Shown here: positions 15,735 through 52,085 of the stretch, piece after piece
How positions within the stretch are numbered: the first letter of the stretch is position 1
Layout of the letters: every line of letters begins with the position of its first letter
NCBI GenBank assembly: GCA_001823065.1
Contig: MHTJ01000003.1
Location: 253,283 to 317,282 of the forward strand
Reading direction: 5' to 3'
DNA: 64,000 bases
Source: Candidatus Vogelbacteria bacterium RIFOXYD1_FULL_44_32
GTDB taxonomy: Bacteria; Patescibacteriota; Minisyncoccia; Phycocordibacterales; XYD1-FULL-46-19
Made by a program: the position numbers and the translations under genes
The notes under the pieces: generated by a model
The model's input: only the letters and a program-made list of their open reading frames with translations
Told to the model about the DNA's origin: nothing
Databases searched by the model: none

Positions 15735-17054
15735 ATGAATGAACGAACTCTAATTGGCGATTTAAACCAAAAAATTGGGGAAGAGGTACTCATTAAAGGC
15801 TGGGTAGATGTCCGGCGTGACCAAGGAAAAATGGTGTTTTTTGATTTCCGCGATCGTAGCGGTAAAGTCCAGGGAGTGGTCCTGCCTAATAGTCCAGCCA
15901 TTGATATTGCCAAAGAAACCCGCAATGAATTTGTAGTGGCTGTTACTGGTCTTGTTAATAAACGACCAGAAAAAAATATCAAAATTAGCGTCCAAAACGG
16001 CGATATTGAATTGGAAATAATTGGTATCGATGTTTTAGCGGAAGCCGAGGCTCTACCATTTGATATGTCGGCTGATGGTTTTAATCTAGACCTCGTGACT
16101 GAACTAGAGCACCGGGCACTATCGCTCCGCCACCCCAAACTGCAAGCGATTTTTAAAGTGCAAGCAGTTATTATTGATTCCTTCCGTGAGTTTATGAAAT
16201 CTCAAGATTTTTTCGAATTTCAAGCACCAGCGATTGTCCCAGCCACCGCTGAAGGGGGAGCGGAGGTTTTCAAAATAGACTACTTTGACAAAAAAGCTTA
16301 TCTTAGCCAGTCACCTCAGCTTTACAAACAAATTGTTATGACCGCCTTTGAGCGTGTTTTTTCCGTAAATAAAATTTTTCGCGCCGAACCCAGTGCCACC
16401 ACTCGCCACCTCACTGAAGTTGTATCACTCGATGCCGAGATGGCGTTTATTGATTCTTGGCGTGATGTTCGCGATATGTCAGAAAGCTGCGTGCGCCATA
16501 TATTGGAACAAGTAAAAACAAAATGTGAACATGAATTAACTTTTCTAGAAGCCGAGCTACCGGTTATGATAAAAGAAACTCCGACTCTCTCTCTAACAGA
16601 AGCGTTAGAAAAATTAGGAGCACCCACCGACAAAGACCTAAACCCGGAACAAGAGCGTAAACTCTGTGAAATGATTAAAACTGAAACCGGCTCGGACTTT
16701 GTTTATGTTTACGGCTACCCAACCAAACAAAAACCTTTTTATGTTTATCCCAACCCAGCCAACCCTGAATTTAACGAAGGTATGGACCTTCTTTGTCGCG
16801 GTGTTGAGTGGCTTTCTGGTGGCCGGCGTATTAATGACTTCAAACAATTAATGAATCACGTCGAGGAGTGGGGGATGGACCCAGCTAAGATAGAAATGTT
16901 CCTAGAGGCCTTTCGTTATGGTGCCCCTCCCGAAGGGGGGTTTGCCTTTGGCGCCGAGCGGATGACCATGCAGATTTTGGGCCTAAAAAATGTGCGCGAA
17001 GCATGTATGTTCCCGCGTGACCTCAACCGTATTGACGGCCTTTTGTCAAAATAG
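15735..17054 (+). CDS. aspS: class IIb aminoacyl-tRNA synthetase, archaeal-type aspartyl- (or asparaginyl-) tRNA synthetase
   Basis: 439 aa. N-terminal OB anticodon-binding domain, motif 2 FRAEPSATTRHLTEVVSLDAEMAF, motif 3 GGFAFGAERMTMQILGLKNVREACMFPRD. AspRS and AsnRS cannot be separated by eye. Confidence 0.85.
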   Translation: MNERTLIGDLNQKIGEEVLIKGWVDVRRDQGKMVFFDFRDRSGKVQGVVLPNSPAIDIAKETRNEFVVAVTGLVNKRPEKNIKISVQNGDIELEIIGIDVLAEAEALPFDMSADGFNLDLVTELEHRALSLRHPKLQAIFKVQAVIIDSFREFMKSQDFFEFQAPAIVPATAEGGAEVFKIDYFDKKAYLSQSPQLYKQIVMTAFERVFSVNKIFRAEPSATTRHLTEVVSLDAEMAFIDSWRDVRDMSESCVRHILEQVKTKCEHELTFLEAELPVMIKETPTLSLTEALEKLGAPTDKDLNPEQERKLCEMIKTETGSDFVYVYGYPTKQKPFYVYPNPANPEFNEGMDLLCRGVEWLSGGRRINDFKQLMNHVEEWGMDPAKIEMFLEAFRYGAPPEGGFAFGAERMTMQILGLKNVREACMFPRDLNRIDGLLSK

Positions 17055-17058
17055 AGTA

Positions 17059-17086
17059 TTGACAAAAAACTCCTATCTGCTATAAT
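17059..17086 (+). promoter_or_regulatory. consensus sigma70 promoter TTGACA-N16-TATAAT
   Basis: TTGACA at 17059-17064 and TATAAT at 17081-17086, directly after the aspS stop. Confidence 0.7.
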
Positions 17087-17093
17087 ATTTGGT

Positions 17094-17297
17094 AGATGCT
17101 CATTCCTGCCTTGGGACCGTGGCCGAGAGCGGTTGGTAGAGTAGGACCTCCAAGCCTACCTTTACTCCAAACGCCCTAGTGCCGACCGTGATCGCCATGG
17201 TCCCAAGCAGCTGTCTCATAGGGGGCTATCATAATTTCATCTGCCCCCGTTTTATTCCCGAGGCCGACACACCCAGTGTTGGCCTCCTTTTTGTTTT
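17094..17297 (+). ncRNA. candidate small RNA (about 200 nt): long imperfect hairpin closed by an 18-bp stem, then two intrinsic terminators
   Basis: Closing stem CCTGCCTTGGGACCGTGG / CCATGGTCCCAAGCAG. Terminator 1 GGGGGC...GCCCCC + GTTTTATT (17221-17256). Terminator 2 GAGGCCGACA...TGTTGGCCTC + CTTTTTGTTTT (17260-17297). No coding potential. Confidence 0.5.
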
Positions 17298-17324
17298 AAA
17301 GGAAAAAAGTTACAATATAAAAAT

Positions 17325-18053
17325 ATGACAGCCTCCTTTGCCTTAAAACTTGATGATTTTGAGGGACCACTTGACCTATTACTACAACTTATTGAAAAAA
17401 GGAAATTGCATATTAGTAAGGTTAATATTGCCGCTGTTACCGACGATTATATTGCCTATCTTTCACAATTTGAGCATCTACCTAAACACGAGACCGCCGA
17501 TTTTTTGGTGGTGGCTTCAACTTTAATGTTGATAAAATCGTCATCACTACTACCAAATCTAAATCTAACTACCGAAGAAGAAACCGATGCCGCCGAATTA
17601 GAAAGACGATTAAAACTCTATCAATATATTCAAGAAGTAGCCCAGAAACTTAAAAATATTTATGGTCAAAATTCTTTGTATTTTCGAGAACCAAATAAAA
17701 ATATTGTACCCGTCTTTGTCACTACACCAGAAATTACCACACCAAACCTTTTAATGGCAGTAAAAACCGTCCTTCAATCACTTCCTAAACTAGAACTCAC
17801 CCCCCAAGTCATTGTTAAAAAAATACGGAGTTTACAAGAAACGATTGATGACCTGGCGAGCCGGATTCAGCGAGCGATCTCGCTAAAATTTAGTGAGTTT
17901 GCTCCCCGTGACAAAGCGGAAAAAGTAAATGTCATTGTTAGTTTTTTGGGTATGCTGGAATTGGTTAAACAAGGAATGATCGAAGTCGAGCAACATACCC
18001 ACTATGCCGATATAGATATGCAGAGCACTAGACCGGGAATGCCTAGGTATTAA
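17325..18053 (+). CDS. scpA: segregation and condensation protein A
   Basis: 242 aa. N-terminal FEGPLDLLLQLIEKRKLHISKVNIAAVTDDY is the ScpA signature. Confidence 0.88.
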   Translation: MTASFALKLDDFEGPLDLLLQLIEKRKLHISKVNIAAVTDDYIAYLSQFEHLPKHETADFLVVASTLMLIKSSSLLPNLNLTTEEETDAAELERRLKLYQYIQEVAQKLKNIYGQNSLYFREPNKNIVPVFVTTPEITTPNLLMAVKTVLQSLPKLELTPQVIVKKIRSLQETIDDLASRIQRAISLKFSEFAPRDKAEKVNVIVSFLGMLELVKQGMIEVEQHTHYADIDMQSTRPGMPRY

Positions 18054-18105: not shown

Positions 18106-18456
18106 TCATTCCTTTTTCTCCGGTGGAATTGACTCGGTTTTGATATGGTAAACCACATCACCCCCGACCTGTTCGGCGACCTCGAGTTTGACTCGGTCAC
18201 CAAATCGGATATTTTCACCAATAGGCATATCCACCGTCACCAGACGGGTAATTGCCCGCCCTCCGCCATCAAACACCACCACACAGACACCGGTCTGCGC
18301 CCCTTTGAAGGCGGTGGGCTTGGTGGTGACCACCCCCTCGGTCATTACCACCCGAAAACCAACTTCAAGTGGGGTGTTGGGGGTTTCGTTTGTGTCTATA
18401 GTGGCACAGCCACAAACAAACCCGGCAAGCACCCCGGCAATAAAAAATCTATTCAT
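18106..18456 (-). CDS. putative lipoprotein (signal peptide with lipobox-like FVCGC)
   Basis: Start assigned at MNRFFIAGVLAGFVCGCATID. No family recognised. Confidence 0.5.
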   Translation of the reverse strand: MNRFFIAGVLAGFVCGCATIDTNETPNTPLEVGFRVVMTEGVVTTKPTAFKGAQTGVCVVVFDGGGRAITRLVTVDMPIGENIRFGDRVKLEVAEQVGGDVVYHIKTESIPPEKKE

Positions 18457-26593: not shown

Positions 26594-26622
26594 TTGACAG
26601 CCAATATGGCCTCTGCTATAAT
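26594..26622 (+). promoter_or_regulatory. consensus sigma70 promoter TTGACA-N17-TATAAT
   Basis: TTGACA 26594-26599, TATAAT 26617-26622. Confidence 0.7.
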
Positions 26623-26628
26623 ATTGAC

Positions 26629-26702
26629 GGTTATATATTGTGTGTGTGATAATATATAACCTCAAACAATAATCACGCAAAACACTGCCAAGTGTTTTTT
26701 TG
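26629..26702 (+). ncRNA. short hairpin RNA / leader: 11-bp (TA)-rich hairpin (GGTTATATATT-GTGTGTGTGA-TAATATATAACC) followed by a weak terminator (ACACT-GCCA-AGTGT + T7)
   Basis: Lies between the consensus promoter and the lysozyme-like gene 90 nt downstream. Confidence 0.35.
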
Positions 26703-51375: not shown

Positions 51376-51814
51376 ATTTATAGCTTATACCTATTCGATA
51401 GGGTTGTCAAGTTCCTTAAATAAATAGGGGTAGGTTGACAGCTTTTCTAGATTTGGTATTATTTACGGTAGCCTTTCACAATAAGTGGGACTGGTACTCC
51501 CCAATAAGAAGCAAACCAAAGACAGAAACCTGTCTCAAGTGTGGCGTGGGTATCTAAAAGTACCATACGCCTAGTGCGTATTCCCGAAAGGGTTTGCTCA
51601 CCTACGTCACACTTGGAACGGGTTTTTTCTGTAAACGAAAACACCCCCGTGAGGGGGCGGTAAGGTGACTGGAAGCCGGAAACTATCAAAATGGGGATAA
51701 GGGAGAGACAGACTCCCAAAACTTGTACAAGGTCCCAAGTCCTACTGCAGTAGGGCGAACTAAAGCTTCGAAGCGTGTCACTTTAATTCCTCCTCCTTGG
51801 GGGTGTTTTTGTAA

Positions 51815-51900
51815 GCGCCGATGACGAAAATGGTATCCGTCCTCGTTCTGTAAACGAGGGTTCCTCCCAGAACTTACGGGTTCGAATCCCGTTCGACGCA
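51815..51900 (+). tRNA. class II tRNA-like element (long variable arm), possibly a pseudo-tRNA, inside the IS
   Basis: Canonical T-arm ACGGG-TTCGAAT-CCCGT. Acceptor GCGCCGA/TCGACGC has one C-A mismatch. 3-bp D-stem with an 11-nt D-loop as in tRNA-Leu/Ser/Tyr. 17-nt variable arm. The anticodon loop TCTGTAA has C at position 33, so identity is unclear. Confidence 0.3.
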
Positions 51901-52085
51901 CAGAGTATTGACGAAAAGCGTCATCTGTATCCTAGCAGGATATGGGGACTTTGTCAATATTCAAAGTATAACACTTGGGGAGTTGTCCACGCCAACATTT
52001 TTATCAATTTTTCTGTTGATAAGGTGTACAGGGGCTATAATGGCAGCTTTTTATTATGGTAGGCGTAGTATGTTATAGTTAAGAA

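Follow-up and report, generated by a model that had tools for sequence, protein, structure and literature searches.

A candidate small RNA gene between aspS and scpA in a groundwater Candidatus Vogelbacteria genome

The gap between aspS and scpA in the groundwater bacterium Candidatus Vogelbacteria bacterium RIFOXYD1_FULL_44_32, a member of the Candidate Phyla Radiation (CPR), contains a candidate small RNA (sRNA) gene of ~165–205 nucleotides (nt). The gap lies in a 64,000-nt stretch of contig MHTJ01000003.1 (positions 253,283 to 317,282), which we call the window and in which all coordinates below are counted. That this is a real, selected and independent RNA gene is in our judgment very probable. 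Our best explanation as a whole is that of an independent, strongly promoted, structured noncoding RNA gene whose product would be a trans-acting riboregulator, a reading that is plausible but falls somewhat short of an even chance, and the base-pairing mechanism in trans that would go with it is put forward only tentatively. A sequence-only reading of the window had proposed an independently transcribed sRNA of ~200 nt at this site, and the proposal has stood up well: the element is ~94% conserved against 56% synonymous divergence, its promoter hexamers are fixed, and scpA has a −10 box of its own. The parts of the RNA gene are the following.

17059–17086, plus strand: sigma-70-type promoter, with −35 TTGACA (17059–17064), a 16-nt spacer, extended −10 TGc (17078–17080) and −10 TATAAT (17081–17086)
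17091–17105, plus strand: single-stranded 5′ leader of 15 nt, GGUAGAUGCUCAUUC, its start being the transcription start deduced from the −10 box
17106–17210, plus strand: hairpin 1 (HP1), a long irregular hairpin of 105 nt with a 17-bp closing stem, a tandem GA/GA internal loop and a second stem of 9 bp
17138–17161, plus strand: apical stem-loop of HP1, with loop CUCCAA at 17148–17153
17162–17180, plus strand: 19-nt bulge on the 3′ side of HP1, UUUACUCCAAACGCCCUAG
17221–17256, plus strand: hairpin 2 (HP2), with a 6-bp stem GGGGGC / GCCCCC (17221–17248), a 16-nt loop UAUCAUAAUUUCAUCU and then GUUUUAUU
17260–17297, plus strand: canonical intrinsic terminator, with an 11-bp stem (17260–17286), a 5-nt loop and the tail CUUUUUGUUUU

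The promoter matches the consensus at 12 of 12 positions and has the TG of an extended −10 in addition, just as the TTGACA-N16-TATAAT assignment had it. Both strands of the 64 kb contain just one other perfect site, and by our arithmetic ~0.02 would be expected for uniform base composition. Transcription would start at ~17091–17094, judging from the position of the −10 box. The whole transcript folds at −88.9 kcal/mol, compared with −61.1 ± 4.5 kcal/mol for dinucleotide shuffles (z = −6.2), and HP1 alone reaches z = −6.1. The long hairpin that had been seen in the sequence is therefore real as a fold prediction, but its closing stem, first given as 18 bp, has 17, made up of 4 bp, a bulged C and 13 bp; the 14-nt inverted repeat 17110–17123 / 17194–17207 is 93% complementary. 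The apical ACCUCC of HP1 resembles the anti-Shine-Dalgarno core of 16S rRNA, and the unpaired segments of the RNA together contain 8% G and 31% C. A linker of 10 nt separates HP1 from HP2. Of the two consecutive intrinsic terminators claimed from the sequence, the second is canonical in a terminator scan, its stem at 17260–17286 being followed by CTTTTTGTTTT, and an RNA ending there would be ~205 nt long. HP2, with its 16-nt loop, is not called by the scan and is a hairpin plus U-tract rather than a textbook terminator; it is a possible first terminator, which would give an RNA of ~165 nt. Fold prediction also allows the 5′ end of the RNA to pair over 8 bp with the loop and 3′ arm of HP2, in competition with HP2 itself.

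The same RNA occurs at three carriers: the window, locus L006 (ScpA 88% identical) and the pair L203/L204 (ScpA 80% identical), whose contig begins 6 nt into the RNA. When the window is set against L006, 56% of four-fold degenerate sites differ in both aspS and scpA, whereas the RNA differs at 12 of 207 positions (~6%) plus one indel, and this disparity therefore points to strong purifying selection. In a sliding comparison of these two loci, the block 17070–17340 is 88–98% identical, mostly exceeding the flanking coding sequence, and identity drops to 17–58% between the aspS stop and the −35 box. The promoter hexamers are identical, and the spacer differs at 5 of 16 bases. Across the three species 16 columns are substituted, 11 of them unpaired and five paired, and four of the five paired changes keep pairing. 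Thirty-two of the 36 pairs counted for HP1 are invariant, one pair is altered on both sides (U-A / U.U / G.U), and each of the three indels falls in a loop or linker. The apical stem-loop is invariant throughout, including 8 of 8 pairs; the HP2 stem is invariant and its loop carries a 3-nt insertion in L203; and all 11 terminator pairs are kept. Also invariant in the three species are the unpaired leader (apart from a single substitution in L006, A17096G), the apical loop, the first 12 nt of the bulge and the linkers, and the last 5 nt of the bulge are the most variable spot of the RNA (CCCUA / UUCCU / UUUCU). The analysis shows a unit that is structured, non-coding and under selection and that carries expression signals of its own.

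A covariance model, R1, built from the window and L006 and run against all loci, also with filters off, matches only the window, L006 and L203/L204, each at the same location, and it finds the L203 RNA at 162 bits (E = 1e-35). A synteny search with the aspartyl-tRNA synthetase (AspRS) in 185,579 species genomes recovered the RNA in L006 only; at the other 79 AspRS loci, aspS abuts scpA or protein genes lie between them. AspRS is a poor guide to carriers of the RNA, since aspS is apparently xenologous in this lineage, as discussed below. Among the matches listed from a loop-based pattern scan of metagenomes there was no homolog, only chance matches. The 39-aa minus-strand open reading frame (ORF) that crosses the RNA was tried as a protein proxy for it and found only itself. 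Rfam 15 gave no match at the RNA when the window was scanned at gathering score, and at E ≤ 10 the interval 16950–17400 returned only noise, with no 6S, signal recognition particle (SRP), Y RNA, tmRNA, T-box or riboswitch model; 11 related loci, scanned in both ways, likewise gave nothing relevant. ARAGORN found no tRNA, tmRNA or tRNA-like element at the RNA locus, in agreement with the sequence-only reading. Searches of phage and plasmid collections revealed no DNA similar to the element, and three RNA patterns scanned against viral contigs had no match.

The flanking features that bear on whether the RNA is a separate transcription unit are these.

15735–17054, plus strand: aspS, encoding an AspRS of 439 aa, with its stop codon at 17052–17054
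17311–17316, plus strand: −10 box TACAAT of scpA, 8 nt before the ATG at 17325 (the feature spans 17311–17327)

A −10-like hexamer (TACAAT, TATAAT, TATAGT and similar) ends 7–11 nt 5′ of the scpA ATG in all 13 related loci, and the scpA −35 (TTGTCT in most relatives) overlaps the terminator tail of the RNA. Because the −10 box stands at a leaderless distance from the ATG, scpA is probably expressed as a leaderless mRNA from its own promoter, and the RNA would be a separate unit; the −10 and −35 of scpA together with the two termination signals argue against the RNA being an scpA leader. Only 7 of the 65 predicted genes in the window have a Shine-Dalgarno-like motif and many have TATAAT 6–10 nt before the ATG, so leaderless or Shine-Dalgarno-independent initiation seems to be the rule here. 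Upstream regions of the window’s genes are A/T-rich.

The site is kept in eight further related species as well, where we located it through ScpA homologs (53–79% identity) at L205, L206, L207, L208/L209, L210, L211, L212/L213, L214, L215 and L216. All of these have a non-coding gap of 266–712 nt upstream of scpA, three of them truncated where the contig stops. Loci with an assembled 5′ end mostly show a strong promoter, made up of TTGACA, a 16–17-nt spacer and TATAAT or a close variant; equivalents of the window’s promoter are present in L205, L206, L207, L208 and L211, and a regular-expression scan found a weaker candidate in L216 and none in L215. The gaps end in a terminator and then TTTGTCT or a close variant, with the exception of L210, and the TTTGTCT tail is exact in five of the eight slot RNAs compared. 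The RNA bodies fold beyond their shuffles in six of six cases tested (z from −5.6 to −9.6), and in our reading of the folds most full-length slot RNAs have a near-perfect GC-rich helix of ~14–19 bp. Their sequences have nothing in common with the window RNA and mostly nothing with each other; by our count, the eleven species have no fewer than nine bodies that do not align with one another. Over the whole slot set the only enriched 5-mers are ATAGA near the 5′ ends (the top one, z = 5.8) and TGTCT in the tail, and (A/C)UAGA recurs near the 5′ end of most of the related RNAs. Enrichment of UCAU/CAU motifs, considered with an anti-start-codon role in mind, is not significant in the slot RNAs (z = 1.2).

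Partial sharing is seen at a few of these loci. L207 has the 3′ module of the window RNA, namely the 3′ arm of HP2, the linker and the lower part of the terminator (z = 5.3, reached by 0 of 300 shuffles); the upper stem of its terminator differs and still pairs, and the place of HP1 is taken by a long hairpin, unrelated in sequence, whose closing stem measures 19 bp. L205, L211 and L212 have in common a pyrimidine-rich loop containing UCAUUCC, clamped by stems of differing sequence. At L210 (1567–2003) a HIT-family gene is kept after aspS, and between it and scpA two promoter-RNA-terminator units stand in tandem. Their RNAs may be complementary in part, since the first is rich in C (CUCCUUCCUCUCCCC) and the second in G (GAGAAGGGGAGGG). 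More distant relatives carry the HIT-family gene between aspS and scpA, and a decayed copy of it was considered as the origin of the window’s gap; no remnant is detectable in the window.

The window RNA has the general properties of a trans-acting sRNA: its own promoter and an intrinsic terminator, a non-coding body, conservation beyond the neutral rate, and invariant unpaired segments that resemble seeds. If it acts by base pairing, its two GC-clamped hairpins would hold the structure and give stability, to which the terminator hairpin would add, and the invariant, G-poor, pyrimidine-rich unpaired segments would be pairing sites for purine-rich segments of mRNAs. Candidates for such segments are the 5′ GCUCAUUC, the apical loop CCUCCAA, the bulge UUACUCCAAACG and the linkers UGUCUCAUA and UUUUAUUCC; targets might be, for example, the few Shine-Dalgarno sites or 5′-terminal AUGA starts.

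Several observations weigh against this explanation. No target was found in the 64 kb: the best complement, in which the RNA 5′ end matches scpA codons 49–53 over 12 nt, is no better than chance (E = 0.78), and L006 keeps it only by means of two wobbles. Over the species compared, pairing of each RNA with the 5′ end of its own scpA (−23.0 kcal/mol) is no better than that of non-cognate pairs (−22.4 kcal/mol). An anti-Shine-Dalgarno seed would have few targets, given that only 7 of 65 genes carry the motif. The different species’ RNAs have no body sequence motif in common. Three near-identical sequences give the covariation test nothing to work with (338 of 500 shuffles score as well), so support for the fold is thermodynamic and comes from the placement of variation. 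High identity among the carriers could partly reflect recent recombination, the locus being mosaic. Lastly, invariance extends equally to helices and loops, more than a simple scaffold would require, and this favours a decoy for RNase III or another protein; across species only position, promoter, stability and terminator are conserved, which favours an insulator acting in cis. One further pairing, AGGGGGCUAUCAU / AUGACAGCCUCCU, specific to the window and its scpA, is weakened in L006 and L203 and was set aside.

The insulator, a cis-acting unit, is unlikely in our view but accounts for much of what is common to the slot. Strong transcription, combined with stable hairpins and terminators, would shield the leaderless scpA promoter from aspS read-through, and the RNA would be a by-product; the unit might also tune the scpA promoter through interference or supercoiling. 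Shielding would be useful because a leadered scpA mRNA lacking a Shine-Dalgarno site would translate poorly. It fits this model that the position, the terminator tail overlapping the scpA −35, the strong folding and the usually strong promoter are kept across species but the body is not, and that in more distant relatives, which would need no insulator, scpA overlaps or abuts aspS. However, insulation takes a terminator and no consensus promoter, and the model leaves unexplained the invariance of loops and linkers in three species whose neutral sites differ at 56%.

Those invariant loops, together with the equally invariant helices, are what an extended protein-contact surface would show, and an RNA that titrates RNA polymerase (as 6S RNA does), a Ro-like protein (as Y RNA does), RNase III or another double-stranded-RNA-binding protein is also a minority prospect. 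Most full-length slot RNAs have, in our reading, the near-perfect GC-rich helix, and CPR genomes keep RNase III (PMC12641178). Pairing of the RNA 5′ end with the HP2 loop would yield a closing stem, an asymmetric bubble and a long terminal helix, but the 3-nt insertion in L203 interrupts this pairing, and the related RNAs have large terminal loops and no central bubble. The E ≤ 10 scan lacks the models that a 6S-like, Y-like or SRP-like RNA should hit, and neither the flanking genes nor the eight largest ORFs scanned in the window (427–629 aa) showed a TROVE/Rsr domain. A hypervariable body would, moreover, demand a partner that co-evolves with it.

The locus is mosaic. The promoter spacer of L006 matches that of L205 (29 of 30 bases), yet its RNA body is that of the window, and species with ScpA 75–82% identical carry three different bodies. 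AspRS of the window and L006 is 40–52% identical to that of other ScpA-related loci (L205, L207, L211, L215 and L216) and 84% identical to that of a Paceibacteria metagenome-assembled genome labelled ‘Nomurabacteria’; aspS thus looks to have been xenologously replaced right beside the RNA slot. The assemblies L203/L204, and likewise L212/L213, are independent and from different samples, and they end at the same base ~235 nt upstream of scpA, just inside the RNA 5′ end. This common breakpoint points to heterogeneity between strains or to a recombination junction where promoter and RNA meet. Because of the shared L205 spacer, the body swaps, the aspS discordance and the common assembly breaks, we take the slot to be a recombination junction, which leaves room for recent exchange to explain part of the identity among the three carriers.

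A far-reaching interpretation, which we regard as a long shot, is a hypervariable ‘RNA expression slot’: unrelated GC-clamped hairpin RNAs would be swapped by recombination between a fixed promoter and terminator and then each held near-invariant within its carriers, a pattern suggestive of selection, diversifying or frequency-dependent, for a specificity determinant made of RNA. If it were true, RNA-based defence, incompatibility or kin recognition, or a function in host interaction would be examples of what such a system could do in these episymbionts, and it would be a kind of system without a described counterpart.

The same mosaic features (the L205 spacer in L006, the discordant aspS, the body swaps and the shared breaks) would also be left by a recombination hot spot with fast turnover of palindromic or selfish inserts, the identity of the three carriers then being recent exchange without selection. 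We consider this improbable, as the limits of the conserved block are the functional limits of the gene, from the −35 box to the scpA start, substitutions avoid or preserve helices, and the phage, plasmid and viral-contig searches were negative. A second copy is also absent from the window. A miniature inverted-repeat transposable element or other repeated palindromic element, tried as a candidate in its own right, was rejected because the window has no second copy, the phage, plasmid and viral-contig searches had no match and, in our reading, no duplication flanks HP1.

A regulatory 5′ leader of the scpA-scpB operon, a riboswitch or attenuator with the terminators as regulated attenuators, is very improbable. 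The RNA does lie directly upstream of scpA on the same strand, and its 5′ end can compete with HP2 for pairing, which the A-to-G change in L006 retains as G.U. But L203 interrupts that pairing; the RNA goes on to a second terminator, a strong one, for which no antiterminator is evident; the scpA −10 box is at leaderless distance in all 13 loci; and the RNA body varies between species in a way that a ligand-binding aptamer would not. The Rfam scans, to which the sequence-only reading had referred this question, assign the RNA neither to a cis-regulatory leader of scpA nor to any other leader or riboswitch.

The remaining alternative is a coding one. The statement that the RNA contains no ORF was too strong, since there is a 39-codon ORF across it on the minus strand, without coding behaviour, and a 27-codon ATG ORF on the plus strand (17096–17179; peptide MLIPALGPWPRAVGRVGPPSLPLLQTP). 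The latter was put to a coding test because its ATG lies 9 nt after the −10 box, the spacing of leaderless genes in this genome and inside the 6–10-nt range of other genes in the window. In L006 the ATG is GTG; the stop shifts, in our reading, from 27 codons to 31 codons and to read-through in L203; a W becomes G in L203; and 1 of ~17 four-fold sites is changed where ~9 would be expected at 56%. One change in L006 (GTT to GTG) is synonymous, there is no Pfam match, and the slot RNAs of other species have no equivalent ORF. As far as these comparisons go, the ORF shows no coding signature, and a leaderless mRNA for the 27-residue peptide is barely credible.

Upstream of the RNA lie an ATP-binding cassette (ABC) transporter gene and aspS; downstream come scpA and scpB, with a small, conserved lipoprotein-like gene on the minus strand between them, and a D-Ala-D-Ala carboxypeptidase gene. 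The lipoprotein-like gene (18106–18456, minus strand) is a conserved ORF of 116 aa; it carries a lipoprotein-type signal (…VCGCATI…), has no Pfam domain and accounts for the GC-rich stretch between scpA and scpB. It is present only in the window, L006, L203, L205 and L212, the L212 copy being much diverged; in distant relatives scpB directly follows scpA with no such ORF between them. On the other side, only 37 nt separate the ABC transporter gene from aspS in the window. L215 has a weak match to a T-box leader 5′ of its aspS (703–840; 35.7 bits with a gathering score of 93, E = 6e-5), and the window has no T-box leader of this kind because of that short distance.

Two other places in the window drew attention through their promoters. 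The second perfect promoter (26594–26700, plus strand; TTGACA-N17-TGnTATAAT) lies upstream of an SLT-domain gene and may belong to a second, tiny sRNA of ~75 nt: behind it come a short hairpin rich in A and T (GGTTATATATT...AATATATAACC) and a terminator-like AAACACTGCCAAGTGTTTTTTT. At 51435–51901 (plus strand) an 11/12 promoter precedes a non-coding stretch of ~340 nt that is GC-rich, matches nothing in Rfam and ends just before an unusual tRNA. This tRNA, 86–87 nt long with a UGU anticodon, a long variable arm and an acceptor-stem mismatch, is called tRNA-Thr by ARAGORN; it scores 38.5 bits with the Rfam tRNA model in a local scan and is absent from the whole-window gathering list.

CPR bacteria, or Patescibacteria, make up a large share of bacterial diversity. 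Our literature search found no report on sRNAs in Parcubacteria or Vogelbacteria, and according to a 2022 transcriptome preprint on TM7x, no small RNA had by then been validated in this CPR model organism (10.1101/2022.03.25.485537). An RNA gene with textbook expression signals, conserved about ten times more strongly than neutral sites, would open a testable way into RNA-based regulation in reduced genomes that largely lack Shine-Dalgarno sites and use leaderless mRNAs.

Among known systems, the RNA matches no RNA family and is best seen as a new orphan sRNA family whose general kind is familiar. The resemblance to 6S, SRP or Y RNA that the sequence-only reading had suggested is not borne out by any model match. 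As in 6S RNA (SsrS, RF00013), the length is ~165–205 nt, the promoter is very strong, the rod is largely double-stranded and the sequence evolves fast between lineages. Unlike in 6S RNA, the long helix is a self-contained local hairpin (HP1) in the 5′ half, a bubble would require the 8-bp pairing of 5′ end and HP2 loop that L203 interrupts, and the slot RNAs of related species have large terminal loops in place of a central bubble. Bacterial SRP (4.5S) RNA (RF00169 / RF01854) likewise has a hairpin of ~100 nt, and the string AGCAGC, said at first not to be there, does occur at 17206–17211; but it sits in the basal helix, with no apical GNRA tetraloop beside it, the apical loop being CUCCAA. 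Nor does the universally conserved Ffh-binding domain of SRP RNA fit a hairpin whose sequence is replaced in close relatives. With Y RNA and YrlA the window RNA has in common a long stem, pyrimidine-rich unpaired stretches, a U-rich 3′ end and a GGUCC string in the stem, but its helix is a perfect complement where the Ro-binding helix is bulged, and no tRNA-like module like that of YrlA was found.

The C-rich base-pairing sRNAs of Gram-positive bacteria, of the RsaE/RoxS type, carry UCCC/CCCC seed motifs. Like them, the window RNA has its own promoter, an intrinsic terminator and stable hairpins that expose G-poor, C/U-rich segments (ACCUCC, AUUCCC), a likeness that assumes no need for Hfq; it differs in having no sequence or model similarity to them and in the small size of their classical target class here, Shine-Dalgarno sites being so few. 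In enteric bacteria, non-homologous sRNAs turn over at conserved intergenic sites, and the slot upstream of scpA is similar in that RNA bodies unrelated to one another occupy one intergenic site, under the same expression signals, across related species. Turnover is dense here and coexists with near-invariance within one body type. The slot offers sRNA turnover in unusually clean form, which is of interest for the question of how bacterial sRNAs originate and give way to others.

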